Assembly (NCBI GenBank): GCA_025056095.1 | Contig: JANWVW010000001.1 | Location: forward strand, 1-51,766 | From: Bacteroidia bacterium | GTDB taxonomy: Bacteria > Bacteroidota > Bacteroidia > JANWVE01 | DNA: 51,766 bases | Reading direction: 5' to 3' | Shown: positions 1-51,766 of the stretch, piece after piece | Numbering within the stretch: the stretch's first letter is position 1 | Layout of the letters: each line of letters opens with the position of its first letter | Made by a program: the position numbers and the translations under genes | The notes under the pieces: generated by a model | Seen by the model: the letters and a program-made list of their open reading frames with translations, nothing else | What the model was told of the DNA's origin: nothing | Databases searched by the model: none

Positions 1-77
1 CGATAGCGTAGCCCGTAGCACGCCGACCTTGCCCACACAAGCGCAGCGAAGTGTGGGCAAGGGCACGCCCAAAAAAA
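1..77. repeat. GC-rich palindromic intergenic element, partial copy cut by the window edge (reverse orientation, probably the end of a long composite copy)
   Basis: Contains CCTTGCCCACAC-aagcgcagcgaa-GTGTGGGCAAGG hairpin, then GGGCACGCCC and an A-run, as in copies at 12333 and 33126. The leftmost bases (reverse complement gggctacgctatcg) match the junction seen only in long copies (about 21721-21735 and 51678-51691). Confidence 0.8.
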
Positions 78-133
78 CTATTCATATCAATAAATCCGAT
101 ATTACAATTTTTTAACAAAAATGTATCAGTCAA

Positions 134-1147
134 TTGCTTACTTTTGTGGTTGTGAAAGTGCGTTTAATCCTCTTAGTTTGGATAGTCTTTGTTTTGAATA
201 TATCCGCCCAAATATTACCTCCTCTAGGAAAACAAAGAGCAGGTACAGCAGGTATGCAGTTTCTAAAAATTGCCGTTGATCCTCGCAGTGCAGGAATGGG
301 CGAAAGCTTCATTGCCGTAGTCAATGACGCTTCTGCTTTATACTGGAATCCCGCAGGAATGAGCATTTCAGATAGCCAAAAAATTCATTTACAAGGTGCT
401 TATACCCGATATTTTGCGGATATTAGCATAAACTACGCAGCAGGGTTTATTAAACTCAAAAATGAACATTATCTCGGTATTAGCTTAACTCACTTGAATT
501 CAGGCGAAATGGATGTAACTACGGAATTCCAACCTTTTGGTACAGGACAAAAATTTAGCGCTACTAACACTGCCATCGGACTTTCTTACGCTAAAAAACT
601 GACAGATAATTTTGCCTTCGGCTTGACCTCTAAATACGCTAACGAAAATATTTTTGGACTACGAACAAATACACTGCTGTTTGATTTAGGTTTTTACTAT
701 GATATTGGCTATCACAACCTTCGTTTTGCGGTTACAATGACAAATTTTGGCTTCAATGTAAAGCCCAAAGGGCAATTAGAAGTAATCAGACTTTCAGGTA
801 CTCAAAATGTAAATAACTTTGAGCAAGTTACCGTACCTTCTATGTTTAAGGTAGGCTTAGCTTGGGATGCTGTTAAAAATGACCGTCATTTGCTCACTTT
901 GTCAGGGCAGCTAAACCATCCCACAGATAACAAAGAAACTTTTAATATTGGGGCTGAATACAGCTGGAATAGGCTGATTTATTTAAGAACAGGCTATCAA
1001 ATTGGAGCAGATGAGAGCAATATTCCTGCATTCGGATTCGGCTTAAAATTTACGCACCGCTTAGGCGCATTGAGAATAGACTATGCTTTTACTAACAAGA
1101 CTCGTTTAGGCTTTACACACAAGTTTGGAATTGGAATCAGTTTTTAA
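134..1147 (+). CDS. PorV/PorQ-family outer-membrane beta-barrel protein (T9SS-associated family)
   Basis: 337-aa ORF starting at TTG 134. GTG at 152 would give the signal peptide MKVRLILLVWIVFVLNISAQ. The N-terminal motif GTAGMQFLKIAVDPRSAGMGESFIAVVNDASALYWNPAGM is typical of PorV/PorQ proteins. The rest has an alternating beta-strand pattern and an aromatic C-terminus (GIGISF). Confidence 0.55.
   Translation: MLTFVVVKVRLILLVWIVFVLNISAQILPPLGKQRAGTAGMQFLKIAVDPRSAGMGESFIAVVNDASALYWNPAGMSISDSQKIHLQGAYTRYFADISINYAAGFIKLKNEHYLGISLTHLNSGEMDVTTEFQPFGTGQKFSATNTAIGLSYAKKLTDNFAFGLTSKYANENIFGLRTNTLLFDLGFYYDIGYHNLRFAVTMTNFGFNVKPKGQLEVIRLSGTQNVNNFEQVTVPSMFKVGLAWDAVKNDRHLLTLSGQLNHPTDNKETFNIGAEYSWNRLIYLRTGYQIGADESNIPAFGFGLKFTHRLGALRIDYAFTNKTRLGFTHKFGIGISF
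139..146 (+). promoter_or_regulatory. Bacteroidetes-type -7 promoter box TACTTTTG
   Basis: Matches TAnnTTTG. It lies 5 nt upstream of the GTG at 152 that would start a clean signal peptide. Confidence 0.3.
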
Positions 1148-1159
1148 TTTTGTCCATAT

Positions 1160-2389
1160 ATGAAAAAACACAGTTTTTTAGCTATTGTTGCTTGTTTACT
1201 TTTGCTTTCTTTCTGGGGTTGCGATGTTTTGTTGGGAACTAAAAAAGACCCTACCGTAGACGATGTTTTTCAACAAGGTAGCATTGACCCCAGCACTATT
1301 GTTTCCAACGTAGGCTATGTACCTATCAACCCTGTGTGGTACTTCAATCAGCCCACAGACGTGTACGTAGGCTATGATGAAATGGTTTACGTAACCGATG
1401 CCGACGGATTACATATTCTTGACCAAAAGGGAACAAAATACAAAACTATCCCCATTCCAAATGCTACAGACGTAACTCAGGATAGGCGTTTGCTTACTTA
1501 TGTAGTTGGGCGAGTGAATTATCCTGTTACTATTGGTAGTAGTACTCAAATTAAAAGCTTACCTGCAATTTACATTATCAAAAACGCGCCCACTTACAAC
1601 CATGAAATTATTGACACGCTTATTCATCCTTTTTGCGATATCACCCGGGCAAGCATTCCGTTTAGACCTCAAGATGAACAAGTTAGCTTTACAGGAGTGG
1701 CTACTTTACATGACAATACTTTTTATGTAAGCCGTACAGGAATAGTCAATACAGGGACAGGCTTTCCTGCACCCGATAATGCTATACTAGTTTTTGATAA
1801 AAATTTCAAAAATACAGGCTATATCAATGAGCTTGATCCTGTCAATACTAATTTACGTTCTGCTGTAAAGGTAACCAGTATTGCAAGCTTTGCCGCCCCT
1901 CCACAATTGGTTTCAGGAATTAGCACGTCTAAAGATTTTCTGCTTACTCAAAAAACAGGACTTGAAACTGAATATGCCGTGCTATGGATAAAACGCATAG
2001 ATGATGTGGATTTGGGCACAACTTACACTGAAAACACTAGTTTGTTGGTGCAAGACACCAGTAAAGCTGACCGTTTTTTGTATCAATCTTTTCGTTTTTC
2101 ACAGCCTGAAGACGTGTGCGTTGCACCTGATGCCTCAGGATACATATTTGTTGTAGATAGTGGAAAAGATAGTCTTTTTATTTTCAATAGGGCTGGATAT
2201 GAAGGCGTAAATAAACCTGCGAATTCTAACTTCCGCAAACAGGTTTTAGCATCTTTTGGCGGAGTAGGAAACGGACCTAAACAGTTTAATAATCCTGTGG
2301 GAGTGGCTTATTTTAGAAAAATGGTCTATGTAGCTGATAAAGATAATAACCGTATTTGTCGGTTTAAGCTATCTACAGATTTACAATGA
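1160..2389 (+). CDS. NHL-repeat (beta-propeller) lipoprotein
   Basis: Signal peptide with lipobox (LLLLSFWGC). C-terminal NHL-type repeats: PEDVCVAPDASGYIFVVDSGKDSLFIFN and FNNPVGVAYFRKMVYVADKDNNRICRF. Starts 12 nt after the preceding gene. Confidence 0.6.
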   Translation: MKKHSFLAIVACLLLLSFWGCDVLLGTKKDPTVDDVFQQGSIDPSTIVSNVGYVPINPVWYFNQPTDVYVGYDEMVYVTDADGLHILDQKGTKYKTIPIPNATDVTQDRRLLTYVVGRVNYPVTIGSSTQIKSLPAIYIIKNAPTYNHEIIDTLIHPFCDITRASIPFRPQDEQVSFTGVATLHDNTFYVSRTGIVNTGTGFPAPDNAILVFDKNFKNTGYINELDPVNTNLRSAVKVTSIASFAAPPQLVSGISTSKDFLLTQKTGLETEYAVLWIKRIDDVDLGTTYTENTSLLVQDTSKADRFLYQSFRFSQPEDVCVAPDASGYIFVVDSGKDSLFIFNRAGYEGVNKPANSNFRKQVLASFGGVGNGPKQFNNPVGVAYFRKMVYVADKDNNRICRFKLSTDLQ

Positions 2390-5225: not shown

Positions 5226-7043
5226 TTAGTCATTTGTCATCCAGGCTTTACGGCATTTTAAAATGATAGGGTCCTGAGTCTCTTCCAAAGTAAATACATG
5301 CGAGGCTTCTTCCTCAACTACTTTGAGAGGTTTTTCTATTTCAATCGTTTTACCTTCTCTTTCTACCACAATTTTAACGGGTTTTCCTACACTAGATTTT
5401 ATGTCTTCCCCAATAGACATTGCGGTAAAAATAGAAATTTCCACTCCGTTAATTGATTTTACATAATCACCAAATTTCAAGCCATATTCAGGGCAATCCT
5501 TAGTAATTTGTGTTTTAGAGCTTGAAAGCATTCCTAATTCTATACCACTTGCTTCTAATGAAGCGACTTTTATTTTGCCTAACCTTTCGTAACGAATTCC
5601 TACAGTTTTGAATAAAGTAGCATAGTCCAAAGGTTCTGTGCCTGTTATGTGCTTATCTATAAATTTTTGGACTTGCGGATGAGTAATTGCTACAATTTCT
5701 TTAAATAAGTTATTATCCTCAAAAGGTTTTTCAGGTCCGTATTTGTTGGATAGTTGTTCTATTACTGTGCGAAGAGTCATTTTACCTTGCGTTAGCCGCA
5801 TAATTTCTAAATCTAATCCCATGCAAAGTAAAGCACCTTTGTCATAAACGTGTCTATAGGCTTTATGATATTTTTCATCTAATACGTTTGCACTCATTTT
5901 AGTAATACTTAACTCTTTGGGCATTAGGTCGGCTGCTTCAATCTTAGCACGTACCTCCCTGAAAAATTCATCTAAGGTAATCATATTAGCTTTGAGTTGG
6001 ATAAGGTGTGAATAGTATTCCGTGCTACCTTCATATAGCCATAAATGTTGCGACATTTTAGGTTGAGCAAAGTTAAATTCGTGAATTTCTCGGCTATGCA
6101 GATTGAGAGGAGTGATAATATGTAAAAACTCATGCGAAGCGACATCATTTACTTGTTTAATCACTGCCGATAGAGGCATAACAGGCAAGTAGTAAAAGGA
6201 ACTGTAAGAATGCTCCAAAGCCCCAAAAGCACCTGTACGAGTGTTACTACCAAACAACGAAGTAAAATAAAATAAAAAAGCATATTTATTCACGGGTAAA
6301 ACTTTCAAAAACTGTTGTAGAGCTTTAACGGTGGGTTCTACCGAAGGTACAAGAGCTTTGGCGTTTATGTTTTTGTCTTTGGAATAGCAAGCGATTAAAA
6401 TTTCTGTTTTGCCAATTTTAATCATGGCAGTATCTAAGGGAGCATACAAGATAGGGCTATCTACTAATTGGACATAGTTAGGAGCTAGCCACACATCTGT
6501 GGTAGCGTCTACTTTTTTCTTTTCCATTGCAGAAGCACCAAAAAGCTTTTCAGGGTGAGTAATAGTTATTTCATAAGGCAACATCATTGCACCTTCTAAG
6601 TATCCAAAAATCCCACCTTGGTTGAGTACAAAGCAATTATCTTTCTCAAAATGAGTTCCTGCGGGTTCAAAAATAGGGTCTTTATCCACAGGTGTATCCC
6701 AAGAAGGACTAACTTGATAGACTATTTTAGCTAAATTTTTACCATTGATAATAAAAGTGTTAGGTTCTTTTTTACTGACACTTAATTTTTTGTTAGCTAG
6801 GTCGTATGCCTCAAAGTTGCTAATAAACCTACCGTAATTTAGATTAGCATACGTTCCAGGTACAGTTTTTGGAAACTGAAAAATATACTTACTTTTTGGT
6901 ATTTTAGGGGGAATGATAGTTACAGTAATTTTTTTATCTTGAACAACGTTCAGATCTATGGTGCATTGGTATTTTTCTTGGCTGTATAGGTCCAAGAAAA
7001 CACACAAAGTACAAAAAACAATACAAGATCGCAGATAATTCAT
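5226..7043 (-). CDS. M61-type zinc metallopeptidase with C-terminal PDZ domain
   Basis: Signal peptide; HEFLHIITP (HExxH) followed by YEGSTEYYS; C-terminal PDZ-like segment GLKFGDYVKSINGVEI. Confidence 0.7.
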   Translation of the reverse strand: MNYLRSCIVFCTLCVFLDLYSQEKYQCTIDLNVVQDKKITVTIIPPKIPKSKYIFQFPKTVPGTYANLNYGRFISNFEAYDLANKKLSVSKKEPNTFIINGKNLAKIVYQVSPSWDTPVDKDPIFEPAGTHFEKDNCFVLNQGGIFGYLEGAMMLPYEITITHPEKLFGASAMEKKKVDATTDVWLAPNYVQLVDSPILYAPLDTAMIKIGKTEILIACYSKDKNINAKALVPSVEPTVKALQQFLKVLPVNKYAFLFYFTSLFGSNTRTGAFGALEHSYSSFYYLPVMPLSAVIKQVNDVASHEFLHIITPLNLHSREIHEFNFAQPKMSQHLWLYEGSTEYYSHLIQLKANMITLDEFFREVRAKIEAADLMPKELSITKMSANVLDEKYHKAYRHVYDKGALLCMGLDLEIMRLTQGKMTLRTVIEQLSNKYGPEKPFEDNNLFKEIVAITHPQVQKFIDKHITGTEPLDYATLFKTVGIRYERLGKIKVASLEASGIELGMLSSSKTQITKDCPEYGLKFGDYVKSINGVEISIFTAMSIGEDIKSSVGKPVKIVVEREGKTIEIEKPLKVVEEEASHVFTLEETQDPIILKCRKAWMTND

Positions 7044-7204: not shown

Positions 7205-9232
7205 ATGAAACTTTTTGTATTGTTTTTGGTACTGTTTGTACCGATTTGTAGCGGTTTAGGTCAAAGTGCAGAAGCTAAAAAAGACTTTCATAAATACATG
7301 AAACAAGGTGAGCTAGCTTATTACAATGACTTATTTGATGAAGCAGCACACTACTTTGAATTAGCTGCGGCTATAAATCCAAACTCTTTTGAAGCTAATT
7401 TTATGGCAGGACTTAGCCATGAGCGGGGAGTAAGACCTCAAGAATGCTTAAAATACTTTGAACAAGCCTACAAACTTAAACCTGAAGGTGAAGATGAACT
7501 GATATACCTTTTAGGTAGGGGCATGCATCTCAATAACCGCTTTGATGAAGCAATTAAATACTACAAACAAGCTTTGAATAATAAAAAAGTTCATAACGCC
7601 TACAATGCCCGCATAAAAGATAAAGAACGGTATATAGGTCCTGAGCGAATTCAATTACTTATCAAGCAATGTGAAAACGGAAAGAAATTGGTTTTGAATC
7701 CTTTAGATGTAGAAATAAAGAATCTTGGACCAAACATCAATGGAAAATTTCCTGATTATGTTCCTGCTTTAACGGCTGACGAACGACGAATATTCTTTAC
7801 CACTCGCCGAGAGGGTGAAAAGGACCCTTACACAGGGCATTACTATGAAGAAATTTTCTATGCAGACAAAGATCCTAAAACAGGGGAATGGAAACCCGCT
7901 AAAAATATAGGAAAAACAATCAATGCTGGGCACAAAAATGAATCCGCAGTAAGTGTTTCTCTAGATGGTAGTACACTTTACATTTATGATGAAAGAGACT
8001 TATATTACTGCACTTTGAAAGGCAATGAGTGGTCTAAACCCGAACCTTTGAAAGAAATTAACACTAAACATTGGGAAACCCATTGTGCAATTTCAGCAGA
8101 TGGTACAGAGCTATTTTTCACTTCTGATAGACCTGGTGGATATGGGGGATTGGATATATACGTAGCTAAAAAACAACCTGACGGCAAGTGGGGACAAATT
8201 CAGAACTTAGGACCTAATATCAATACAGAATTCGATGAAGAGGCCCCCTTCATCCACTACGATGGTGTAACCCTATATTTTAGTTCAAGGGGACATAACA
8301 GCATGGGTGGATACGATATATTCTACGCCACTCGCAACCCTGATGGTTCTTGGAACAAACCTGTGAACATAGGTTACCCTATCAATACCGCTTCTGATGA
8401 TGTTTACTTTGTAATAAACTTTGATAGAAAAAGAGCATACTACTCTTCTGCTAGAGGTGATGATAGTTATGGCGATAAAGACATTTACATGATTATTATG
8501 CCTGAACCCAAAGACTTAGTTACCGTAGAAAATAAACCTGAAGAGAAGCAGCCTGAAAAAAAACCTGAACCTATAATTACAGTTACACGTGTCTATGGTA
8601 CTGTAACTGATGAACGCACAGGTCAGCCATTAGAAGCAGATGTAACTATCGTTGATAACGAAACAGGAAACATAGTATTTAAAAGTAAAACAAATTCTGC
8701 TACTGGATATTACGTAGTAACCTTGCCTTCAGGTAAAAATTATGGCTTTAGAGTAGAAAAGCCTGGCTATACTTTCTATTCTGAAAATTTTGACCTTCCA
8801 ATGGGAACAGAATCTCGGGACTATGAGAAAAATGCCAAGATAAAAGGCTTCTCGGAGGGAACTAGGATAATCATGCGAAACATATTTTATGACTATAACA
8901 AAGCAACCCTTCGCCCACAGTCCAAAGCAGAACTTGACCGTGTAGCAGCAATGCTAAACGAGTGTCCAAAAATGAGAGTCCAAATCAATGCGCATACTGA
9001 TTCTGATGGAACTGAAGAGTATAATTTAGATTTGTCCCAAAGACGCGCCCAATCTGTAGTAGATTACTTGGTCAAAGTAAAAGGTATTGATCCTAAACGA
9101 CTATCTGCCAAAGGTTTTGGAGAGTCCCAGCCTGTAGATACAAACGAAACGGATGAAGGAAAACAAAATAATCGCCGTACTGAACTAGAAATAATAGGAG
9201 GTACTGAAGACTGTGTATTTTCCACTAAATAA
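7205..9232 (+). CDS. OmpA-family protein with N-terminal TPR, TolB-type WD40-like beta-propeller repeats and a carboxypeptidase-regulatory-like domain
   Basis: The ORF track begins at TTG 7190; ATG 7205 gives the signal peptide MKLFVLFLVLFVPICSG. Repeated ...FFTS.R.GG.GG.DIY... units match the TolB/PD40 repeat type. The C-terminal OmpA domain reads INAHTDSDGTEEYNLDLSQRRAQSVVDYL...NRRTELEI. Confidence 0.75.
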   Translation: MKLFVLFLVLFVPICSGLGQSAEAKKDFHKYMKQGELAYYNDLFDEAAHYFELAAAINPNSFEANFMAGLSHERGVRPQECLKYFEQAYKLKPEGEDELIYLLGRGMHLNNRFDEAIKYYKQALNNKKVHNAYNARIKDKERYIGPERIQLLIKQCENGKKLVLNPLDVEIKNLGPNINGKFPDYVPALTADERRIFFTTRREGEKDPYTGHYYEEIFYADKDPKTGEWKPAKNIGKTINAGHKNESAVSVSLDGSTLYIYDERDLYYCTLKGNEWSKPEPLKEINTKHWETHCAISADGTELFFTSDRPGGYGGLDIYVAKKQPDGKWGQIQNLGPNINTEFDEEAPFIHYDGVTLYFSSRGHNSMGGYDIFYATRNPDGSWNKPVNIGYPINTASDDVYFVINFDRKRAYYSSARGDDSYGDKDIYMIIMPEPKDLVTVENKPEEKQPEKKPEPIITVTRVYGTVTDERTGQPLEADVTIVDNETGNIVFKSKTNSATGYYVVTLPSGKNYGFRVEKPGYTFYSENFDLPMGTESRDYEKNAKIKGFSEGTRIIMRNIFYDYNKATLRPQSKAELDRVAAMLNECPKMRVQINAHTDSDGTEEYNLDLSQRRAQSVVDYLVKVKGIDPKRLSAKGFGESQPVDTNETDEGKQNNRRTELEIIGGTEDCVFSTK

Positions 9233-9280
9233 AAGAGCCTAAAATTACAAAATATATTAGCTCTAAAAATAATTTCACCT

Positions 9281-9381
9281 TTTGGGCGTGCCCTTGTGGG
9301 CAAAAGCCCACAAGGTCGGCGTGCTACGGGCTACGTGCGGAATGCCCCGACCCGAGCGTAGCGAGGGACACGCCCAAAAAA
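9281..9381. repeat. GC-rich palindromic intergenic element, short form (stem variant 2, short loop)
   Basis: TTT-GGGCGTGCCCTTGTGGGC-aaaa-GCCCACAAGG-tcggcgtgctacgggctacgtgcggaatgcccc...GGGACACGCCC-AAAAAA. Confidence 0.85.
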
Positions 9382-10892: not shown

Positions 10893-10960
10893 CCATCAAG
10901 CAACTATATTTTGAAGTGGATATTAAAATACGGCAGGTGTGTTAAAAACAAGTTTAAGCT

Positions 10961-12283
10961 CTATGTTACAGAATGGGTTACGTGTACGTTGTCTTTTACT
11001 TCACCTATTACATTTCCTTCGGGGCTGATGCTCTGTAAGGTTACAGTTACTAATTCATTGACCATTAAAGGGTCATAGGGCATTTGCACTTTAATGTAAT
11101 TTTCAGTAAAGCCTACCATGTGGTTACCTTCTAATTCTTGCTCAAAAAGGACACGATAAGTTTTTTTTAAGTTTTGTTCGTAAAAATATCGCCGTTTTTT
11201 TTCAGATAAGATGGTGAGCATACGATTACGTTTTTTACGTTCTGCAAAAGGGACTACGGGTTTAATAGAAAGGGCTTTTGTATTATCTCGTTCGGAGTAA
11301 GTAAAAACATGTAAATAGCTCACATCTAACTCATTGATAAATTGATAAGTATCCAAGAAATGGGCTTCAGTTTCACTAGGAAAGCCCACAATCACATCAA
11401 CGCCTATGCAAGCATGGGGCATAATAGACTTAATGTAATCTACACGATCCTTGTAAAGTTCTCTTTTGTATCTGCGTTGCATGCGAGCTAAAATTTCATT
11501 ATTACCACTTTGCAAAGGAATATGAAAATGCGGCATGAAGTGCCGACTTTGGGCTACAAAGTCAATAATCTTATTGCTCAATAGGTTAGGTTCAATTGAA
11601 GAGATACGTACTCTAAAATCCCCCTCTAACTCATCTATTTTTTGGATAAGGTCCAAAAAAGAGTAAGGTAAGTTTTTACCATAATCTCCGATATTTACTC
11701 CTGTAAGTACAATTTCTTTTACGCCTTGTGCAAGGATATGCTTAGCATTTTGAAGTACATTTTCTAATGTATCGCTGCGGCTTGCACCCCTCGCCAAAGG
11801 GATAGTACAAAAGCTGCAATGATAATCACATCCATCTTGTATTTTGAGAAAAGAACGAGTTCTATCGCCAATAGAGTACGCATCTGTAAAGTGCTTTACT
11901 TGCTTAATTTCAGATACGTGAATTTCGGGTTTAGACCGTTTTTCGAAGTTTTGGATAATGTCTAAAAGTTGGAATTTTTCTGCTGCGCCCAAAACTACAT
12001 CTACCCCAGGGATTTGAACAATCTCTTCAGGTTTGAGCTGCGCGTAGCATCCTATGACGACGATGAACGCATTTGGGGAAAACTTTAAAGCTTGTTGGAC
12101 GACTTTACGGCATTTTTTATCTGCGTGTTCGGTTACAGAGCAAGTGTTGATTATATACACATCTGCGCCGCTTTCAAAATCTACCTTTTGAAAACCTGCT
12201 TGGGCAAACATTCGGCTTATGGTAGAAGTCTCTGAATAGTTTAATTTGCATCCCAAAGTATAGTAGCTAACTGTTTTATTCAT
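10961..12283 (-). CDS. mtaB: tRNA t6A37 methylthiotransferase (radical SAM, MtaB type)
   Basis: N-terminal YTLGCKLNYSETS...NTCSVTEHADKKC, radical-SAM CDYHCSFCTIP motif and a C-terminal TRAM-like domain; 440 aa. Confidence 0.82.
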   Translation of the reverse strand: MNKTVSYYTLGCKLNYSETSTISRMFAQAGFQKVDFESGADVYIINTCSVTEHADKKCRKVVQQALKFSPNAFIVVIGCYAQLKPEEIVQIPGVDVVLGAAEKFQLLDIIQNFEKRSKPEIHVSEIKQVKHFTDAYSIGDRTRSFLKIQDGCDYHCSFCTIPLARGASRSDTLENVLQNAKHILAQGVKEIVLTGVNIGDYGKNLPYSFLDLIQKIDELEGDFRVRISSIEPNLLSNKIIDFVAQSRHFMPHFHIPLQSGNNEILARMQRRYKRELYKDRVDYIKSIMPHACIGVDVIVGFPSETEAHFLDTYQFINELDVSYLHVFTYSERDNTKALSIKPVVPFAERKKRNRMLTILSEKKRRYFYEQNLKKTYRVLFEQELEGNHMVGFTENYIKVQMPYDPLMVNELVTVTLQSISPEGNVIGEVKDNVHVTHSVT

Positions 12284-12296
12284 CCTAAATTATTTG

Positions 12297-12304
12297 CAAA
12301 GATA
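12297..12304 (-). promoter_or_regulatory. -7 promoter box TATCTTTG
   Basis: Plus-strand caaagata, 13 nt upstream of ATG 12283. Confidence 0.4.
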
Positions 12305-12332
12305 CGTAAAATTGATGTATGTAGAATTTTTA

Positions 12333-12448
12333 TTTTGGGCGTGCCCCTTGCTGACGCAAGGGTCGGGGCATTCCGCACGTAGCCTGTAGCACGCCGACCT
12401 TGCCCACACCAGCGCAAGCGAAGTGTGGGCAAGGGCACGCCCAAAAAA
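12333..12448. repeat. GC-rich palindromic intergenic element, short form (reverse orientation, stem variant 1)
   Basis: TTTT-GGGCGTGCCCCTTGCtgacGCAAGGG...CCTTGCCCACACcagcgcaagcgaaGTGTGGGCAAGG-GCACGCCC-AAAAAA. Sits in the divergent mtaB / CHAT promoter region. Confidence 0.9.
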
Positions 12449-19960: not shown

Positions 19961-20074
19961 TTTTTTGGCGTGTCCTTGCCCACACAAGCGCAACCGAAGT
20001 ATGGGCAGGACGGCGTGCTTCGAGCTACGTACGGAATGCCCCGACCCTTGCGCAGCAAGGGGCATACCCAAAAA
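19961..20074. repeat. GC-rich palindromic intergenic element, short form (forward, stem variant 1, slightly degenerate)
   Basis: TTTTTT-GGCGTGTCCTTGCCCACACaagcgcaaccgaagtATGGGCAGGacggcgtgcttcgagctacgtacggaatgccccgaCCCTTGCgcaGCAAGGGGCATACCC-AAAAA. Lies between convergent genes. Confidence 0.85.
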
Positions 20075-21583: not shown

Positions 21584-21658
21584 ACATTTTAGCGTGAATC
21601 ATGGTTGAGTTCGTTTTGGCGCTGTGCAAGAGATAATTTTCAGAAGATTGAATTTTAG

Positions 21659-22020
21659 TTTTTTTGGGCGTGCCCTTGCCCCCACTTCGCTGCGCTTGTG
21701 TAGGCAAGGTCGGCGTGCTACGGGCTACGCTGACGCTTCGGTGCTACGCTTCGCTCCGCACTGGGCTAACGCCCACCCTCCGCATGCCTCACGCAAGGAA
21801 TCTCTGAAACAACCGTTTTTCTGTTTCTTATGCAAAGTTTTAGCTTGTAAGTACTTGTACTTCAAGCTTAAACAAGGTAAAGACATAATTGCACAGGTTA
21901 TCTGCGTGAGGGGCATGGAGCATGCCCGCAAGGGCAGTACGAAGCGTTAGCGAAGTACCGAAGCGAAGCGCAGTGCGGAATGCCCCGACCCTTGCGTTAG
22001 CAAGGGGCACGCCCAAAAAA
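21659..22020. repeat. GC-rich palindromic element, long composite form (short element carrying a ~244-bp nested insert at 21730-21973)
   Basis: The ends are identical to the short form (GGGCGTGCCCTTGCCC...; ...tgcggaatgccccgaCCCTTGCgttaGCAAGGGGCACGCCC). The insert has its own inverted termini and an AT-rich core (21787-21911). Collinear with the copy at 37632-37988. Confidence 0.9.
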
Positions 22021-22058
22021 TAAAATCATTTTTTACATTTGACAAAACCCTACACGTC

Positions 22059-22100
22059 AAAAAAACAGGCTAGCCCGTTGTAAGTAGAAGGCTAGCCTGT
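22059..22100 (-). terminator. Rho-independent terminator of the respiratory operon
   Basis: Perfect 11-bp stem ACAGGCTAGCC / GGCTAGCCTGT (22065-22100) followed on the minus strand by a T7 run (plus-strand A-run 22059-22065). Located about 26 nt after the stop at 22126. Confidence 0.75.
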
Positions 22101-33125: not shown

Positions 33126-33244
33126 TTTTTTGGGGCGTGCCCTTGCCCACACTTCGCTTGCGCTTGTGTGGGCAAGGGCGGCGTGCTACGGGCTACGTGC
33201 GGAATGCCCCGACCCTTGCGTCAGCAAGGGGCACGCCCAAAAAA
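33126..33244. repeat. GC-rich palindromic intergenic element, short form (forward, stem variant 1; best-preserved copy)
   Basis: TTTTTT-GGGGCGTGCC-CTTGCCCACAC-ttcgcttgcgctt-GTGTGGGCAAG-ggcggcgtgctacgggctacgtgcggaatgccccga-CCCTTGC-gtca-GCAAGGG-GCACGCCC-AAAAAA. Sits in the divergent operon / fbp promoter region. Confidence 0.92.
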
Positions 33245-37631: not shown

Positions 37632-37988
37632 TTTTTTGGGCGTGCCCTTGTGGGCGTTTCGCTGCGCTCATGCCCACAAGGTCGGCGTGCTTCGGGCTTC
37701 GCTAACGCTTCGGTGCTGCGCTTCGCTGCGCACCGTGCTGACGCACGCCCTTCGCATGCCTCACGCAGGGAATCTCTGAAACCATCATTTCTCTGTGCGT
37801 TATGCAAGGTTTTAGTTTGTAAGTACTTGTACTTCAAGCTTAAACAAGGTAAAGATGTGATTGCACAGGTCATCTGCGTGAGGGGCATGGAGCATGCCGA
37901 TAGGCAGTACGAAGCGTAGCGAAGTACCGAAGCGTTAGCGTAGTGCGGAATGCCCCGACCCTTGCGTCAGCAAGGGGCACGCCCAAAA
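37632..37988. repeat. GC-rich palindromic element, long composite form (stem variant 2; nested ~242-bp insert at 37702-37943)
   Basis: Collinear with 21659-22020 across the whole length, including the AT-rich core (37759-37883). Lies about 100 nt 3' of tRNA-Pro. Confidence 0.9.
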
Positions 37989-38089
37989 TAAAAAATAAAA
38001 AAAACTTCTTTCAAACCTGGTACAATAGCAGCATAAAAGCAGGTTTTTGTTAGGTAGGCTTAGCCGCCCATTAAGACTATTAGGTTTCG

Positions 38090-38163
38090 TCGGGATGGCG
38101 GGATTTGAACCCGCGACCTCTTGCACCCCAAGCAAGTGCGCTACCGGGCTGCGCCACATCCCG
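38090..38163 (-). tRNA. tRNA-Pro (anticodon GGG), CCA not encoded
   Basis: Manual cloverleaf: acceptor CGGGATG/CATCCCG, D stem GCGC/GCGC, anticodon stem CTTGC/GCAAG with loop TT-GGG-GT, T arm GCGGG-TTCAAAT-CCCGC, discriminator A. 74 nt. Confidence 0.93.
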
Positions 38164-44247: not shown

Positions 44248-44283
44248 ATAATTATGAATTATCTGTAATCTGTAGTTGCGGGT

Positions 44284-44291
44284 CAAATTTA
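44284..44291 (-). promoter_or_regulatory. -7 promoter box TAAATTTG
   Basis: Plus-strand caaattta, 36 nt upstream of ATG 44247. Confidence 0.35.
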
Positions 44292-44452
44292 AGAATAATT
44301 TTTAAAGTTGGAAAAACGCACAACAAAATATTACATTTTGTTTTCTCTTTTTTAACGTGAGTTCTGGATTGTAAAAAAAGTTTTTGGGGTATAAATAGCA
44401 ATAAAATCAGATAAGATTTGGATAAATAAAAAAGAGCAATAAAACTACTCTT

Positions 44453-44605
44453 ATGATAATAAACGAAATTGTTATCATTGGGCTGTTTATGGAAGCCGAC
44501 GATTTTTGTAAAGATCTAGATGCATATAACGCTACTCACACTTTACAAAGTGCAAATATGCAAAATAATCAGAGTAAAAAGGCCGTGTTTAGTGGAACAA
44601 CATAA
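44453..44605 (+). pseudogene. IS982-family-like transposase N-terminal remnant (50 codons)
   Basis: Translation MIINEIVIIGLFMEADDFCKDLDAYNATHTLQS...NQSKKAVFSGTT*. The I..F...DDFCK motif resembles IS982 transposase N-termini. The ORF stops prematurely with no continuation. Confidence 0.35.
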
Positions 44606-44659
44606 TTTTGGATAGAGGTCCTCATGATACCTGCCTTTTTTAGAAAAACAAGTAATCCT

Positions 44660-45183
44660 TCAAGCTAAACGCTTGTTTCTAACCTGTAAGCAAGTATTTA
44701 CGCCCTCAATTTTTTTAGCGTAATGTTTGCCAACCCGATGATTCTCCTTTCTTTCCTCGCTAAATACCTTTACAAACGCTTTCAAATTATCCATGCAAAA
44801 CTCATCTATCTGCATATCTTTCAGTTGCTCACACCCTATAACCGTATCCTCATTTCTCTTTTCTATCACGTAAGCTAGTACCTCATATACGCATACAATA
44901 TCCATCGCTTACAGCGTTTCTTGCCTACGTAAGACCATAATTTTGGTCTAATCAAGACCTTTTTTGACTGCTCAATAAGCGTACACAACACTGTACCATG
45001 ACTGACCTACTCTGTATCTCTTACCCCAAAGTATCTTGATTATCTACTTTTTAGCTATGGTATTAGCATCCTTATACTTGTAATCATTCTGAAAATTGTT
45101 TGCCACAGTTTTTACACAAAAAATTTTGTGCTTCATTTTTTGTAACCGTTTTTTACTAAGCAATGAGGACAAGTTACTTTCAC
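44660..45183 (-). pseudogene. IS1-family-like transposase pseudogene (multiple frameshifts and stops)
   Basis: Minus-strand fragments lie in different frames. They read (GTG)KVTCPHCLVKNGYKK, NFLCKNCGKQF (two zinc-knuckle motifs), KLWSYVGKKRCKRWILYAY (DEMWSFVGKK..W-like) and MDNLKAF...HRVGKHYAKKIEGVNTCLQVRNKRLA (TD..AY...H.GK..T..IER.N..LR..RL-like). The last fragment is the 81-aa ORF at 44660-44905. Confidence 0.55.
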
Positions 45184-45272
45184 TTATACTACAAAACTAA
45201 AAATTCATTCATTAACTCCTTAAAACACTATCATACATTCTAAACCACAACCAAAGTGTTTTTTGTAGGCTA

Positions 45273-45390
45273 TTTTTTTGGGCGTGCCCCTTGCTGACGC
45301 AAGGGTCAGGGCATTCCGCACGTAGCCCGCAGCACGCCGACCTTGTGGGCATGAGCACAGCGAAACGCCCACAAGGACACGCCCAAAAAA
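45273..45390. repeat. GC-rich palindromic intergenic element, short form (reverse orientation, stem variant 2)
   Basis: TTTTTTT-GGGCGTGCCCCTTGCtgacGCAAGGG...CCTTGTGGGCatgagcacagcgaaacGCCCACAAGG-ACACGCCC-AAAAAA. Ends 6 nt before the alpha-2-macroglobulin stop codon. Confidence 0.9.
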
Positions 45391-45395
45391 TTAAC

Positions 45396-48300
45396 TTACT
45401 TAATCTCTACTTTTATACCTTCAGAATGACTGTTAAATTCAGGGGCATACATGCATTGTATGGTAGCTATTCCATTCTGAAATACGCCCCTATGTGCAGC
45501 TCGCAAAGGATATTCAAACACGTACGTACCTTTACGTAAATAATCCATAAAAAAGTGTGTGGCTATGTCCCGGGTACTTTCATAGTAGCCCAAACCCCCT
45601 TGATACTTGTACTGCGAAAGTACATTCATCGGTTCAAATCCTGCGGCACGCATATCTTTGAGATGTATGTACTCCATGTCCCTGTCTACCCTTAACTCTA
45701 TCCTTACTTTGACTATATCCCCTACTTGAATAGGTGTATTTTCGGTAATGGGTTCCAATACTTTACCTCTGTCCGTATTCCGTTCAATGAATATCTGCTT
45801 TTTAAGTTTAAGAGGAGTTTCATGCGGTGTAACCTTATCCATTTGCTCAAAATATTGCCAATATACCGCGCCCCAAGCTACTCCCTCATCTTTTTTATGC
45901 ACTGTGATGTTGCCCATGTCTGATTTAATATCACTTGCCTGCCACACAGTCTTGAAATAACCTGTACCTGCTTCTGCTTTTTCAGGTACTATGGTAAGAC
46001 TACCCAAAGTAATTTCTACAAGCTCATCACTCAAAAGCTGATTAACGCCCCTGCGCAGCAAAGCATAACATGCTTCCACAGTAGCTTTGGTTGTTTTCCA
46101 ATCATTAGTCTGTTTGTGTTTCAATAACCATACTTTAAGCTCTTCTACTGATTTTTGGTCATTCGTAATTTCATCAAAACACTCAATCATAAGGGCTTGC
46201 GTTTCAATAGGCGCTTGATACCAATAGTAACCTCCCGTGTTCTCTTTGAAATACATTCCCATCTCTTCGTGATAAATAGCATGTTCTTTAATGGACTTCA
46301 TAATATCCAAAGCGAATTTGGGATTAGTTTGCGGTAAATATGCTTTTGTGTTGTTATGAGCAAAACGGTGCATACCTAAAGCTATCATACCTTTGAGCAT
46401 GATGTTGCAACTTGTCCAATACTTTTCTACTTGCTTAACAAAATACTTGAAAGCTTCTTCATAATGGTTGTCCAACTTATATTCGGTGAAATAACTCCTT
46501 GTGTATAAGTAGTGTATAGCATAGTAGCTTAGGTGGTTATCATTGAGGTTCGTAGCATATTTTTTAATATTTTGATAATGTTCATGCATGCGGGCATCCA
46601 TGTAAGGAACGGCTTTTTGAATAATAGTTTGTAGTTGTCCGTATTTTTCTACGTTTATGCCCAATACGTTCAAATGTCCGATTCCTGCAAGAATGTGCTG
46701 CGTTATCCAAGGATTGTCAGGCATACCTGGAAACCATGCAAAACCTCCGTTTGGCGTTTGCCGTTCTGCTAGGGTTTTGAGTGCTTTGCTAAGCTCATAG
46801 TTCATGCGATTGAGGTCAAAAAGAAGCGCAATTCGTTTTTTGCGTTCTGTTTCGTCCTTTCCCTCTAAAACCCAAGGGGTTTCCTCTAAAAGTGCATATT
46901 TAAGTTCTTGATTTTTTTCTAAATTAGACAGTAAAGCTTTACTATCAGGTTCATTTGCCCAACGGTCAAATACCGCTTTGATTTTAGGATGTGAATTAGC
47001 AATATGCGCAGCAATGCTATTCGCATAAAAACGGCTAAATATTTGTTCAGTGCATTCGTGTGGGAATTCCATCAAATAAGGTAGTGCCTGCACAGCGTAC
47101 CACGCGGGATTAGAAGTAAATTCCAGAGTTAGTTTATGATTTCTAATCGTTGTAGAACCTGCATTTTGAGTAATGAGCTTATCAAAAGTGAATTTCTTTT
47201 TTTCTTTGCCCCGAATAGGTAGAGGTAGACTTTCTGTAACTAAAATTCTATCTGTAACCACAGGCGCAGTAGCTTCCTCGCCATCAGAAAATTCATTAGT
47301 AAGGGCTACTACTCGATGCGTAATAGCAGATGTACCGACAGGAATAACCATTCGCCAAGAAATACCTTTATTTTGTCCTGGGGCTATGGTAAAGTCTTGT
47401 TCTACATTAGAAATTTGGCAGAGCGATTCAATAGGTTTGAGTGTTAGGGCGTCAAAAAGGGCAATTTTTACCTTACCTGTGAGTGTTTTAGTGGATAAGT
47501 TTGTAATTTTGACGGGATACTCTATTATATCTGTTTCTCTGAAAAAGCGAGGTGCGTTAGGTTGAACCATCAGTTCTTTCTGTGTAATGACTTCATCGTA
47601 CAAAAAGCCTACTTTAAGGTCTTGGGTATGGGCTAGTGCCATAAATTTCCACTTAGTCAATGCTTCGGGGATAGTAAAGCTAAGCACAAACTCCCCTTTC
47701 TCGTTCGTTTGGACTTGGGGATAAAAAAATGCTGTTTCATTAAAATTAGTGCGTATTTTCAATTCTGTCTGTTTTTTATTTTCCAGATCTTGGTCTTTGT
47801 CTTTTGAGGGAGCTTTTTCAACTTCATTATTACCATTAACAGGAATTTTTTCATTATCATCTAACTTACTGCCCACATCTGTTTCATTTGGAGCACCGTT
47901 GCGCTTAGGTGAATTAAAAGTTATAGAGTAAGCAGGTTCGGACATTTTCCCTTTTTTACTTCCTCTTTTGAGGTATAGATCTCTATATGTTTGGTAAAAG
48001 TATAAACCATAGTAGTTAATTTGGTCATCACTGAGAGAATAGCCATATACGTACTGGTACCAATGCTCTTGGAATGTACCTATGTGAGATAGTCCCAAAC
48101 CATACTCATGAATCCCGTAATGGCTATCATAATTTGGGTATAAAGATAAGTTCCAATCATTTGGTTTGAATAGGTCTAAAGAAGCATCGTAAAGGTTGGC
48201 AAGTAATTCTGCCATTACTTTTTCTGCGTTTTTACCTGAAACGGTTAGTTTCCACTCTTCTTTTTGTCCAGGTTGTAGCTTGTTGCGAAAAGTGCTCCAT

Positions 48301-51635: not shown

Positions 51636-51766
51636 TTTTGGGCGTGCCCCTCGCTAACGCTCGGGTCGGCGTGCTACGGGCTACGCTAGCGCTTCGGTGC
51701 TTCGCTGCGCTTCGCACCGTGCTAACGCACGCCCTCCGCATGCCTCACGCAAAAAGCCCCTGCAAA
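51636..51766. repeat. GC-rich palindromic element, long composite form, truncated by the window end
   Basis: TTTT-GGGCGTGCCCCTCGCTAACGCTCGGGTCGGCGTGCTACGGGCTACG then ctagcgcttcggtgcttcgctgcgcttcgcaccgtgctaacgcacgccctccgcatgcctcacgca. Collinear with the left part of the nested insert in 21659-22020 and 37632-37988. Confidence 0.85.

Follow-up and report, generated by a model that had tools for sequence, protein, structure and literature searches.

The window analysed here is a 51,766-nt stretch from the genome of a Bacteroidia bacterium (assembly GCA_025056095.1, contig JANWVW010000001.1). Its DNA is AT-rich, and several of its intergenic regions, that at 33126-33244 among them, are occupied by a GC-rich palindromic repeat. 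The question raised by this locus is what these repeats are and from what they are derived. The repeat family is previously undescribed. Roughly even probability is given to the reading that its nine elements in the window are gene-less, MITE-like internal-deletion derivatives of a palindromic element that bears an Rpn gene.

Repeat copies in the window

Repeat finding and BLAST of the window recovered nine copies, and only nine, at the coordinates of the original prediction. All nine lie between ORFs, as had been stated, and both orientations occur. Together the copies make up 2.7% of the window, and approximately a quarter of its intergenic regions contain one. The claimed contrast with the host DNA is real, since the copy cores have 56-70% GC and the rest of the window 36.8%. 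The terminus GGGCGTGCCC has 12 exact matches on the two strands, with 0.01 expected by chance; none of 100 shuffled sequences reached 12.

The focal copy (33126-33244, plus strand) is a short form with a core of 106 nt (33133-33238) and a predicted fold of -69.1 kcal/mol (z = -4.93). It lies in a divergent region, with a ferredoxin/Rieske/cytochrome b operon on one side and fbp on the other. The divergent context proposed for it and for the short form at 12333-12448 (minus strand, core 12337-12442, 106 nt) was found in both cases, and the short form at 19961-20074 (plus strand) was indeed seen between convergent genes. A further short form at 9281-9381 (plus strand, core 9284-9375, 92 nt) has a GTGGGC/GCCCAC variant of the stem of hairpin H1 (see below) with a 4-nt loop, and is flanked by two co-directional OmpA-family genes. 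The short form at 45273-45390 (minus strand, core 45280-45384, 105 nt), found by repeat finding and terminus match, stops 5 nt from the stop codon of a 2039-aa alpha-2-macroglobulin-family gene. Two copies are of a medium form. The one at 21659-22020 (plus strand, core 21666-22014, 349 nt, fold z = -8.75) consists of a left arm with 67% GC, an AT-rich core of ~105 nt with 33% GC that holds a single copy of a 46-nt unit, and a right arm with 65% GC; it is 84-92% identical to many copies of the related genome SKYG108. The other (37632-37988, plus strand, core 37638-37984, 347 nt) is 86% identical to 21660-21926 and lies 100 nt from the tRNA-Pro gene at 38089-38163, the tRNA adjacency noted originally. 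The remaining two copies are partial. That cut by the window start (1-77, minus strand) still has a long-form arm (CGATAGCGTAGCCCGTAGCACGCCGACC) and the H1 hairpin, and its terminus GGGCACGCCC adjoins an A-run. That cut by the window end (51636-51766, plus strand) is a long-type left arm with terminus, H2-like hairpin, GGTCGGCGTGCTACGGGCTACGCTAGCGCTTCGGTGCT and the boundary motif CGCATGCCTCACGCA, and over 97 nt it shares 80% identity with the left arm of a gene-bearing unit in a related locus (L105 874-962). The repeat also creates spurious ORFs, as predicted, for example at 21624-21950.

Structure of the element

The focal copy begins with the left terminus GGGCGTGCCC (33133-33142, plus strand, as are all its parts), the exact point at which homology between copies starts in gene-bearing relatives. 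It continues with hairpin module H1 (33141-33177; CCTTGCCCACAC, loop TTCGCTTGCGCTT, GTGTGGGCAAGG), the linker GCGGCGTGCTACGGGCTACG|TGCGGAATGCCCCGA (33178-33212), in which the bar marks the junction at which the short form lacks the long form's core and inner arm segments, hairpin module H2 (33213-33230; CCCTTGC-GTCA-GCAAGGG) and the right terminus GGGCACGCCC (33229-33238, by terminus match), after which an A-run follows. The two hairpin modules and the conserved linker GGCGTGCTACGGGCTACGTGCGGAATGCCCCGA described in the original prediction are thus present; this plain anatomy does not extend to the two long copies, which have extra GC-rich arm segments and the core of ~105 nt with 33% GC. The terminal inverted repeat holds for complete copies, with GGGCGTGCCC and GGGCACGCCC at opposite ends, whereas the copy at 19961 has the degenerate termini GGCGTGTCC and GGGCATACCC. 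Nor is the end sequence uniform, the copies at 9281 and 45273 ending in GGACACGCCC. The extensions GAATTTT(T)AnTTTTTT are present at four copy ends. A T-run stands to the left and an A-run to the right of the element, an inverted and not a direct arrangement. The outer boxes ATGAA and CTGATGTTA were rejected as true element ends, occurring in only 10-22% of flanks. The GTAGC motifs of the repeat lie within the linker (CGTAGCCCGTAGCACGCC) and do not head a stem.

The boundary between arm and core is marked by CGCATGCCTMACGC and has the motif CGCATGCCT[C/A]ACGC / GCGTGAGG. The boundary motif CGCATGCCTCACGCA occurs in 104 exact copies, and its conservation equals or exceeds that of the termini. 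The 46-nt units of the AT-rich cores are irregularly spaced, degenerate tandem copies with no spacers, on which ground the cores were rejected as mini-CRISPR arrays.

Whole elements fold as nested hairpins, far better than shuffled sequence. Across 32 distinct copies of H1, 97.9% of cells are paired and 8 of the 12 pairs have changed on both sides; none of 500 shuffles was as good. Selection is not required for stem covariation in a DNA palindrome, since intramolecular gene conversion can also produce it. Folding is alike on the two strands, with 631 and 652 G-U pairs. A strand-specific RNA was rejected because both strands fold equally well with near-equal numbers of G-U pairs, and the same symmetry suggests that the structure acts at the level of DNA; the folding models support a DNA hairpin or cruciform as the relevant form. 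An intrinsic terminator was likewise rejected, because on both strands the T-run precedes and the A-run follows the stem, that is, both runs are on the wrong sides.

Searches for known families and enzymes

At gathering score, only the tRNA-Pro passed in a search of the whole window with Rfam 15, and relaxed Rfam searches of 21600-22080 and 44250-45420 gave chance-level matches only. The arm motif had zero matches in IMG/VR, a search bearing on viral origin, and plasmids gave no match to the repeat. In the searchable literature the repeat motifs led to no paper on a bacterial repeat: GGGCGTGCCC occurs mostly in papers on phiC31 att sites, TTGGGCGTGCCC mostly in papers on HCV primers and assays, GGTCGGCGTGCT in a single paper, on Lysobacter, and the two remaining motifs gave no matches. 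Identity with a known annotated repeat family, raised originally as a possible objection, was not found in these searches. A large MITE survey contains no mention of PDDEXK or Rpn. No transposase, RAYT or HUH/Y1 domain was found among the window ORFs, and neither TnpA nor TnpB was detected in the window or related loci. A search of 767 kb of sequence found no IS200-like gene, which is a weak test on partial genomes. A multi-copy transposase beside the SKYG108 repeats was rejected, as all-vs-all clustering of ORFs returned only spurious repeat ORFs and TonB-type paralogues.

Distribution and size series in related genomes

Confinement of the family to the window, raised originally as a possible objection, is disproved by its high copy number in relatives. 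The related Bacteroidia MAG SKYG108 shares 91.6% DNA identity with the window in one orthologous stretch of 1.4 kb, and its examined loci contain clearly more than 100 copies. One 19-mer of the repeat matches 45 SKYG108 loci, and BLAST with one long copy gave 191 match clusters in the window and SKYG108 loci, a few of them due to chance. The family is also present in SKYG84, in an ENA assembly and in the metagenome Ga0272446, where 21 loci with 35-40% GC contain it.

Size classes with constant termini were observed at ~52, 92-118, ~345-350 and 500-630 nt, and up to gene-bearing units of 1.3-1.5 kb. The SKYG108 copies cluster into ~52, 92-106, 345-350 and 500-630 nt. In the forms of 500-630 nt no credible ORF was found, only short and non-recurrent ones. 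In Ga0272446 copies the parts always follow one another as TL-A1-B1-[core]-B2-C2-TR; copies that consist of arms only (~250 nt) are numerous. Copies are equally distributed over divergent, convergent and tandem gene contexts, with no preference, and show a mild bias towards the orientation of co-directional neighbour genes (19 vs 7, p = 0.03). The original description, that of a dispersed MITE- or REP/BIME-like family ending in inverted repeats, is supported by the high copy number in relatives and by gene-bearing elements with the same ends.

Gene-bearing units

The full-length form, found in sister genomes only, is 1.3-1.5 kb long and consists of two GC-rich arms that enclose a promoter of the Bacteroidetes type and a single gene. 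The arms, of ~105 nt each, are imperfect inverted repeats of each other with the ends GGGCGTKYCC and GGRMACGCCC. Such units were found in Ga0272446, ERZ27247594 and SKYG108, the last cut by a contig end; the window has no gene-bearing copy, and no complete one was found in its own lineage. In nine aligned left ends the homology starts exactly at GGGCGT, and the flanks are unrelated. Two genes, A and B, share a common arm type and the same slot, and gene orientation is constant relative to the asymmetric arms. Units with gene A (408 aa) lie at L081 115-1644 and L093 2068-3555, and units with gene B at L084 4606-5926 and L105 847-2237. Gene A occurs at eight loci with 95-99% amino-acid identity. 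In SKYG108 (L014 7380-7880) a left arm, three 46-nt units, the sequence TAnnTTTG and a gene start with the family-invariant motif NPxYDVVF[KR]YLMED precede the contig end.

Gene B (L084 4735-5760, minus strand) matches PF12784 (E = 2e-66, 224.4 bits, cut-off 27.4) and TIGR01784 (E = 2.5e-25, 89.8 bits, cut-off 52.1). Gene A had no match in a direct comparison with Pfam. Its assignment needed a profile-profile comparison: two-profile hhalign aligned it with the PDDEXK_2 profile over 300 columns (97.9% probability, E = 3.2e-13), the D...E-x-Q motif included, whereas single-sequence hhalign aligned the C-terminus only. The catalytic motif of gene A is LDF...IELQK, with D84 and Q104 invariant and E102 nearly so; hhalign sets the gene B motif, LDLYC...IEVQR, opposite to it. 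The catalytic residues of RpnA are D63, E82 and Q84 (PMC5350276). As in RpnL and RpnS, the heptad repeats of both proteins vary while their C-terminal tail is conserved. For gene A, a PDB sequence-profile search returned only coiled-coil noise, and Foldseek with its AlphaFold2 model, of mediocre quality (pLDDT 70.6), found no match in the PDB below E = 0.04. The search for a cognate element suggested originally therefore succeeded as to gene-bearing units with the same ends in sister genomes, and failed as to the kind of gene, which is neither a RAYT nor a classical IS transposase. We know of no autonomous PD-(D/E)XK transposase.

One locus (L080) is a deletion intermediate in which both arms and the promoter survive together with two pieces of gene B, its 3' part and 27 N-terminal codons; short C-terminal gene remnants remain in L095 and L080. 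One arm pair encloses a CRISPR array and not a nuclease gene. In other lineages homologues of gene A (L097, L100, L101) and gene B (L102-L104) are ordinary single genes with no arms, from which it follows that the proteins do not need such ends.

Orthologous sites and age of the copies

Several orthologous sites are occupied by different size classes. The site of the short copy at 12333-12448 has a long-form arm in SKYG108 (L014 1-112), the site of window positions 1-77 has a full 1.5-kb gene A element in Ga0272446 (L081 108-1645), and one further site has a 52-nt copy in SKYG108 and a 256-nt copy in Ga0272446. The comparison for presence and absence proposed originally gave, besides these, one filled-vs-empty case with diverged flanks, a 52-nt SKYG108 copy (L028 6523-6574) against an element-free Ga0272446 locus (L080); no clean filled-vs-empty site with exact junctions was found among the orthologous sites compared. 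The copy at 45273 and L105 were rejected as an orthologous site downstream of the alpha-2-macroglobulin gene, the proteins being only 24.5% identical. Exact-protein look-ups for strain variants at the focal site led to contigs that stop at the element edge. The target-site duplications that had been suggested as a check were not seen: no direct repeat was present in 124 ends of 62 complete elements of the window and SKYG108, or in 48 ends of 24 Ga0272446 elements.

Copies in the lineage of the window are 86-93% identical to one another, and orthologous sites are occupied in genomes only ~77-92% identical in flanking genes, so recent transposition in this genome is not supported. Judged from sequence divergence, the copies in this genome appear old and mostly decaying in place.

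Origin of the elements

The full-length unit would be the ancestral state, with inverted structured arms around a promoter and a lone PD-(D/E)XK nuclease gene of the Rpn/PDDEXK_2 family, and the window copies would be leftovers of successive deletions of its inner palindromic layers. We infer that the observed size series runs from long to short: loss of the gene would give the non-coding forms of 500-630 nt, then those of ~350, ~100 and ~52 nt. The outermost termini and the T-run and A-run flanks would be retained at every step, which would account for the 'Russian-doll' anatomy. The Rpn-like nuclease may work in trans on hairpin or cruciform ends and so mobilise or copy the unit, and probably the shorter derivatives too, with insertion into AT-rich intergenic DNA without target-site duplication. 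A wider claim is possible but doubtful, namely that the label 'putative transposase' of the Rpn/PDDEXK_2 proteins holds in one branch of the superfamily or more, and that here a nuclease specific for the structure of hairpin or cruciform ends seeded hundreds of MITE-like palindromes.

An unlikely but serious alternative takes the arms as a non-autonomous REPIN- or MITE-like vehicle moved by an unlinked enzyme, and the Rpn-like genes as hitch-hiking toxin-antitoxin or defence cargo with no role in mobility. Rpn proteins have been described as defence toxins that 'likely rely on hitch-hiking with mobile elements', and for rpn genes a toxin-antitoxin/antiphage role was assigned and no evidence of autonomous transposition found (PMC10400941). 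The arm-less homologues, the RpnL/RpnS-like heptad repeats and C-terminal tail, the two different genes within one arm type and the CRISPR array inside one arm pair all agree with this account. A general vehicle, however, would be expected to hold diverse cargo, whereas all enclosed genes (A, B and that of SKYG108) except in the CRISPR case belong to the same Rpn/PDDEXK_2 superfamily, and their orientation relative to the asymmetric arms is always the same. The search for a trans-acting transposase also returned no candidate, a weak negative since it covered 767 kb of partial genomes.

That the nuclease gene is instead a homing gene, which cuts arms-only palindromes at the boundary motif and copies itself in by repair while the palindromes spread otherwise, is considered distinctly improbable. 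This would suit the strong conservation and 104 exact copies of the boundary motif, the near-identical gene copies at exactly equal internal arm positions in different loci, the shared slot of genes A and B and the varying slot filling at orthologous sites, and homing endonucleases include at least one of the PD-(D/E)XK type (PMC5350276). Against it, the dispersal of the palindromes is left unexplained, the intermediates that keep gene pieces fit decay better than precise homing, and site-specific cleavage is hypothetical here. A non-mobile host function (a terminator or insulator, an mRNA 3'-end stabiliser, a REP-like protein or supercoiling site, or a structured small RNA) is very improbable. 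The positions conserved between genomes with ~75-92% nucleotide identity of orthologous genes, the covarying stems and the mild orientation bias speak for it, as does thermophily as an explanation of the GC content, since structured nucleic acids of thermophiles typically stand out as GC-rich in AT-rich genomes. It is opposed by the A- and T-runs, which are the reverse of those of an intrinsic terminator, by the equal use of gene contexts, the like folding of the strands and the lack of an Rfam match, by the range of 52 to 630 nt at equivalent sites, and by the gradation of the family into multi-copy gene-bearing units with unrelated flanks.

Comparison with known systems

With bacterial MITEs such as Correia/CREE of Neisseria and Nezha of cyanobacteria, the family shares small, non-coding, high-copy, intergenic elements with terminal inverted repeats in both orientations, a size series apparently due to internal deletion of a longer, gene-bearing element that has identical ends, spurious ORFs and broken assemblies. 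The inverted repeats of MITEs are short and simple, however, whereas those of the family are arms of ~105 nt with several nested GC-rich hairpins, and no target-site duplication was found. MITE parents encode DDE, HUH or serine/tyrosine transposases, while the sole gene of the putative parent here is a PD-(D/E)XK (Rpn/PDDEXK_2) nuclease, at most a candidate transposase. Unlike MITEs, most copies look old and are common to several species. Like REP, BIME and REPIN sequences, the copies are GC-rich extragenic palindromes, present in hundreds, with inverted doublets that fold as hairpins, compensatory stem changes, long vertical persistence at orthologous sites and an associated enzyme gene flanked by inverted repeats. 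REPs are defined as imperfect palindromes of 20-40 nt headed by a conserved GTAG or CGTC (PMC3733652), whereas the units described here are larger and multi-layered, with arms of ~50-105 nt and no such head. The REP-associated enzyme is a RAYT (TnpA_REP, Y1 HUH), typically single-copy; the flanked gene here is from an unrelated nuclease superfamily and is multi-copy in Ga0272446, like an IS. IS200/IS605 and PATE elements have subterminal hairpins, no inverted ends and TnpA(Y1)/TnpB, in contrast to the inverted terminal repeats here. Rickettsia palindromic elements (RPE) are also dispersed hairpin repeats (~100-150 nt) of AT-rich genomes with no known transposase, but they are unrelated in sequence and also insert in frame within genes, whereas the window family is strictly intergenic. 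AT-rich genomes with RPEs also encode PDDEXK_2 genes (PMC12445526). RPEs are not known to be linked to these genes.

Within the Rpn (YhgA-like, Transposase_31)/PDDEXK_2 (TIGR01784) proteins, gene B encodes a bona fide member and gene A a full-length remote homologue, sharing the D...E-x-Q motif, the variable repeat helix, the conserved C-terminal tail and the presence of multiple copies per genome. Characterised Rpn genes have no known element ends, and their autonomous transposition was judged unlikely (PMC10400941); here the gene is the only one in a repeated unit whose limits are sharp, whose inverted arms are structured and of which many gene-less derivatives exist.

Significance

The repeats fragment assemblies of hot-spring-type Bacteroidia MAGs and create false ORFs, and they are usable as lineage markers. 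Few 'putative transposase' proteins are as widespread as those of the PDDEXK_2, Transposase_31 and Rpn groups, which occur in Bacteroidota, cyanobacteria, spirochaetes, Rickettsiales and Wolbachia, and to our knowledge element ends have never been defined for them. Their best-studied members are now regarded as defence toxins unable to move by themselves (PMC10400941). The transfer of cif genes is still attributed to such proteins (PMC12445526). The bounded gene-bearing unit and its complete gene-less series offer a concrete DNA substrate on which possible recognition, cutting or movement of specific structures by these nucleases can be examined. If the wider claim on the 'putative transposase' label is true, the unit described here would rank as the first mobile one with sharp bounds and an Rpn/PDDEXK_2 nuclease as its sole gene, and its relationship with the palindromes as a PD-(D/E)XK analogue of that between REPIN and RAYT.

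Copies in the window

The window carries exactly nine copies of the repeat, in the number and at the positions originally claimed, as determined by repeat finding and by sensitive BLAST with one long copy. Five are short forms of 92-106 nt from GGGCG to CGCCC (starting at 9281, 12333, 19961, 33126 and 45273), two are medium forms of 349 and 347 nt (21659-22020 and 37632-37988), and the copies at 1-77 and 51636-51766 are cut by the window ends. All nine lie between genes, as had been described, and the tRNA reported next to the copy at 37632 is a tRNA-Pro (38089-38163). The contrast in GC content also holds, with 56-70% in the copy cores, which make up 2.7% of the window, and 36.8% in the remainder. 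The decamer GGGCGTGCCC occurs 12 times on both strands, against a mean of 0.01 in dinucleotide-preserving shuffles, none of which (0/100) reached 12. Folding energies are -69.1 kcal/mol for the focal copy (33126-33244; z = -4.9 relative to shuffled sequence) and -171 kcal/mol for one long copy (z = -8.8). The window is ordinary chromosome, a Bacteroidota housekeeping region whose ORFs include PorV-like, OmpA-family, MiaB-like radical-SAM, cbb3 oxidase, Rieske/cytochrome b, FBPase, LemA, TonB-receptor and alpha-2-macroglobulin-family proteins; no intact transposase was found among them. A 1.1 kb stretch without a long ORF (44287-45270) lies beside the element at 45273. Two neighbouring small ORFs at 44660-44991 on the minus strand have weak Pfam DDE_Tnp_IS1 matches (E = 0.002-0.003), suggestive of the decayed remains of an IS1-like transposase. 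Part of the stretch, 44978-45253, shares 79% identity with positions 7632-7922 of locus L008 from the MAG SKYG108.

Distribution in related genomes

The family is not confined to the window and is present in SKYG108, SKYG84 and the metagenome Ga0272446. An exact search of a species-representative genome collection with a right-arm 19-mer returned 54 stretches, 45 of them from 'Bacteroidia bacterium SKYG108', one from 'Microscillaceae bacterium SKYG84' and eight that are chance matches in GC-rich genomes. SKYG108 is a close relative (91.6% identity between window 10955-12378 and its locus L014). With one long copy as query, BLAST gave 191 hit clusters in the window and ~330 kb of fetched sequence, a few of them in chance-hit loci. 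The arm motif had no match in IMG/VR; in JGI metagenomes it was found at 22 loci, all from the sample Ga0272446 and 21 of them at 35-40% GC. The Ga0272446 organism is a more distant relative (77% identity between window 57-2389 and locus L081). Both window ends fall inside elements, and two independent Logan contigs (L055 and L056) of 99.7-100% identical DNA end at 33131 in the window, where they meet the edge of the element at 33126; the repeats thus break assemblies, and a high copy number is already implied by this breakage. Arms are also the end point of many SKYG108 contigs. In SKYG108, ~240 N mask an etfB-etfA-like intergenic region (L008 30-270), and locus L067 is without an element at that site.

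Structure and flanks

In the large forms the left arm runs from the terminus through a hairpin and GGTCGGCGTGCTNCGGGCTNCGCT... to the boundary motif CGCATGCCTCACGCA, of which 104 exact copies were counted. The AT-rich core holds one to five degenerate ~46-nt units (CTTAACCTTGTAAGTACTTGAAAATCAA..AAACAAGGTAAAG), and the right arm comprises ...TGCGTGAGG..., GGAATGCCCCGACCC, a hairpin and the terminus. Each medium copy of the window has one ~46-nt unit, and the short copies consist of the two outermost layers, joined where GGGCTACG meets TGCGGAATG. Terminus-to-terminus distances in SKYG108 cluster at ~52, 92-106, 345-350, 400-430 and 500-630 nt, and its large forms contain no credible ORFs. In Ga0272446 the order of termini (TL, TR) and arm segments is constant, TL-A1-B1-[core]-B2-C2-TR, and arms-only copies of ~250 nt are most common.

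Flanks were compared at 124 ends from the window and SKYG108, with left and right ends combined and all read as left flanks. The first four positions outside the terminus are T in 96-98% (A on the top strand at the right flank) and the fifth in 84%, followed by only a weak (G)ATTTTAnTTTTTT tendency. Target-site duplications, for which the original prediction had suggested a search, were absent from these 124 ends; the T-run and A-run do not qualify, since they are mutually inverted. An intrinsic terminator was likewise rejected, because on both strands the T-run precedes and the A-run follows the stem. In about 22% of Ga0272446 flanks (for example L081 6863-7269, L092 5917-6160 and L090 3968) an additional inverted box, CTGATGTTA...TAACATCAG, lies 20-27 nt beyond the GGGCG termini; it may be a further outer palindrome layer or a preferred target. 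A lone, reversed arm of the right-arm type, from terminus to CCCTCACGCA, lies immediately after a stop codon at L081 3970-4085; its window counterpart is a 22-nt gap between convergent genes, and the downstream gene differs between the genomes.

Hairpin conservation

The 12-bp stem of H1, the hairpin module near one terminus, covaries strongly among 32 distinct copies. Standard pairs account for 97.9% of cells, compared with 84.8% in shuffles (0/500 equalled the observed score) and 31-50% when partners were slid by 1-3 columns, and 8 of the 12 pairs are altered on both sides. In alignment A4, which covers copies from the window, SKYG108 and Ga0272446, the loop TTCGCTGCGCTC is constant and the stems around it form discrete classes, each complementary: GCCCAC/GTGGGC, the same pair swapped (GTGGGC/GCCCAC), GCTTGC/GCAAGC, GCCTGC/GCAGGC and GCACAC/GTGTGC. 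One chimeric copy is unpaired (GCTTGC with GCCCAC), a sign that copies may have exchanged sequence. A DNA-level hairpin or cruciform fits better than a strand-specific RNA, because the two strands fold nearly equally (mean -165.7 and -163.9 kcal/mol; 631 and 652 G-U pairs), gene contexts are mixed (26 tandem, 12 convergent, 9 divergent) and orientation bias is weak (19 to 7, p = 0.03). Intramolecular conversion can, however, keep the arms of a DNA palindrome complementary without selection.

Gene-bearing relatives

At the Ga0272446 site orthologous to window 1-77, upstream of the PorV-like gene, locus L081 carries a 1,530-nt unit in which the left and right arms enclose a TAnnTTTG promoter box followed by a 408-aa ORF (gene A). 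Gene A occurs at eight loci with 95-99% amino-acid identity. In nine aligned left ends the flanks are unrelated and homology begins exactly at GGGCGTTCC, preceded by a T-run in six. The slot of gene A is taken by a second gene, B, within the same arms in L084 (4606-5926) and in L105 (847-2237), a locus from ENA assembly ERZ27247594; these elements, from different assemblies, share 89.5% identity over 1,330 nt. Gene B belongs to the PDDEXK_2 / Rpn family, 'recombination-promoting nuclease/putative transposase' (PF12784, E = 2e-66; TIGR01784, E = 2.5e-25). The gene A protein has at least 931 homologues, annotated 'hypothetical', and had no match in Pfam, PDB sequence search or Foldseek. Profile-profile comparison aligned it with PDDEXK_2 over 300 columns (97.9% probability, E = 3.2e-13). 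The alignment pairs the N-terminal motif NPxYDVVF[KR]YL with NxLTDFGFKRIF and LDF...IELQK with LDLYC...IEVQR, and the latter pair corresponds to the D/E-x-Q residues known to be catalytic in RpnA (PMC5350276); the C-terminal tails also align. In the Rpn-like proteins (L081 284-1509, L084 4735-5760 and P0001/P0002) the conserved tail, ...TGLTxEEIEKL, is preceded by heptad repeats (EQEKQRA / EEEKKRA) that vary in number and recall the variable 4-aa repeats of RpnS antitoxin domains (PMC10400941).

In SKYG108, the closest relative of the window, locus L014 (7380-7880) has a window-type left arm, three 46-nt units, the TAnnTTTG box and a gene start with the invariant N-terminal motif of gene A, at which the contig ends. 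By this order, the upstream region of an Rpn-like gene is what makes up the AT-rich cores of non-coding forms. An element in Ga0272446 locus L080 lies ~1.2 kb from a gene for a 494-aa protein (7862-9346, minus strand) that, read by eye, has an AAA-ATPase-like N-terminus and a putative PD-(D/E)XK-like C-terminal end (...GRIDAIMIYQNRVYIFEFK...).

Probable decay and age of the copies

Several observations speak for decay through internal deletions. Partly deleted units were found: one in L080 still has both arms and the promoter, together with 27 codons from the N-terminus and the final (3') third of gene B, and others keep only ~30 C-terminal codons; within L080 5895-6670 the protein is reduced essentially to the C-terminal part with heptad repeats and tail. 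Different forms occupy orthologous sites: the short window copy at 12333 and a long-form arm in SKYG108, window 1-77 and the full gene-A unit in L081, a 52-nt SKYG108 copy and a 256-nt Ga0272446 copy, and, between diverged flanks, a 52-nt copy and no element. Five window copies, with three different H1 backgrounds among them, have the short-form junction, as against a single occurrence in ~300 kb of SKYG108 loci; in the window lineage the inner palindrome was probably lost repeatedly in a structure-directed manner, or copies exchanged sequence. Window copies (86-93% identity) are no closer to each other than to SKYG108 copies (84-92%), and most insertions therefore look older than the split of the two genomes.

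Origin of the repeats

The original prediction compared the repeats to MITE- or REP/BIME-like families. Functionally they do resemble bacterial MITEs and come closer still to REPIN-RAYT systems, where repeats flank the enzyme gene and the palindromes are long-lived in extragenic DNA, but defining features of both are missing: the family lacks the target-site duplication of MITEs, the GTAG-headed unit of REPs and a RAYT. For the cognate transposase or IS with matching ends that the original prediction suggested looking for, the gene-bearing units are a candidate; the gene they enclose is Rpn-like. A literature search found no paper on the family motifs in the context of bacterial repeats, nor one in which MITEs or defined ends are tied to genes of the PDDEXK_2 or Rpn type.

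A functional link between gene and arms is favoured by all protein genes seen inside arms belonging to one superfamily, by their invariant orientation relative to the arms and by the lack of another candidate enzyme among the window ORFs or related loci. Against a necessary link, other lineages have homologues of genes A and B that stand singly and lack arms. The literature (PMC10400941) also treats rpn genes as toxin-antitoxin or antiphage modules, finds no evidence that they transpose autonomously and knows of no autonomous PD-(D/E)XK transposase. The sole non-Rpn content seen inside arms is a CRISPR array in SKYG108. There, at L036 5717-7292, the array and a ~400-nt leader lie between two inverted family arms, with ~10 repeats of 47 nt (GTTGTAAATGCTGTACAAAAATACCGAGATTCCTCGGTATTTACAAC) at 6243-6976. 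That the arms are a vehicle and the genes their cargo, a reading to which the CRISPR array and the armless homologues are congenial and the single superfamily and fixed orientation are not, is rather doubtful. Homing of the nuclease gene into pre-existing palindromes we consider improbable. A purely host-functional structure, with which the paired H1 stems are compatible and the gene-bearing units are not readily reconciled, is the most improbable of all.

Two things are shown by the data: a unit with an Rpn-like gene alone was copied, with exact boundaries, to many loci, and the window repeats are gene-less relatives of this unit. The repeats may, on an evenly balanced judgement, be MITE-like derivatives of an Rpn-nuclease element, which the Rpn-like nuclease would mobilise in trans.
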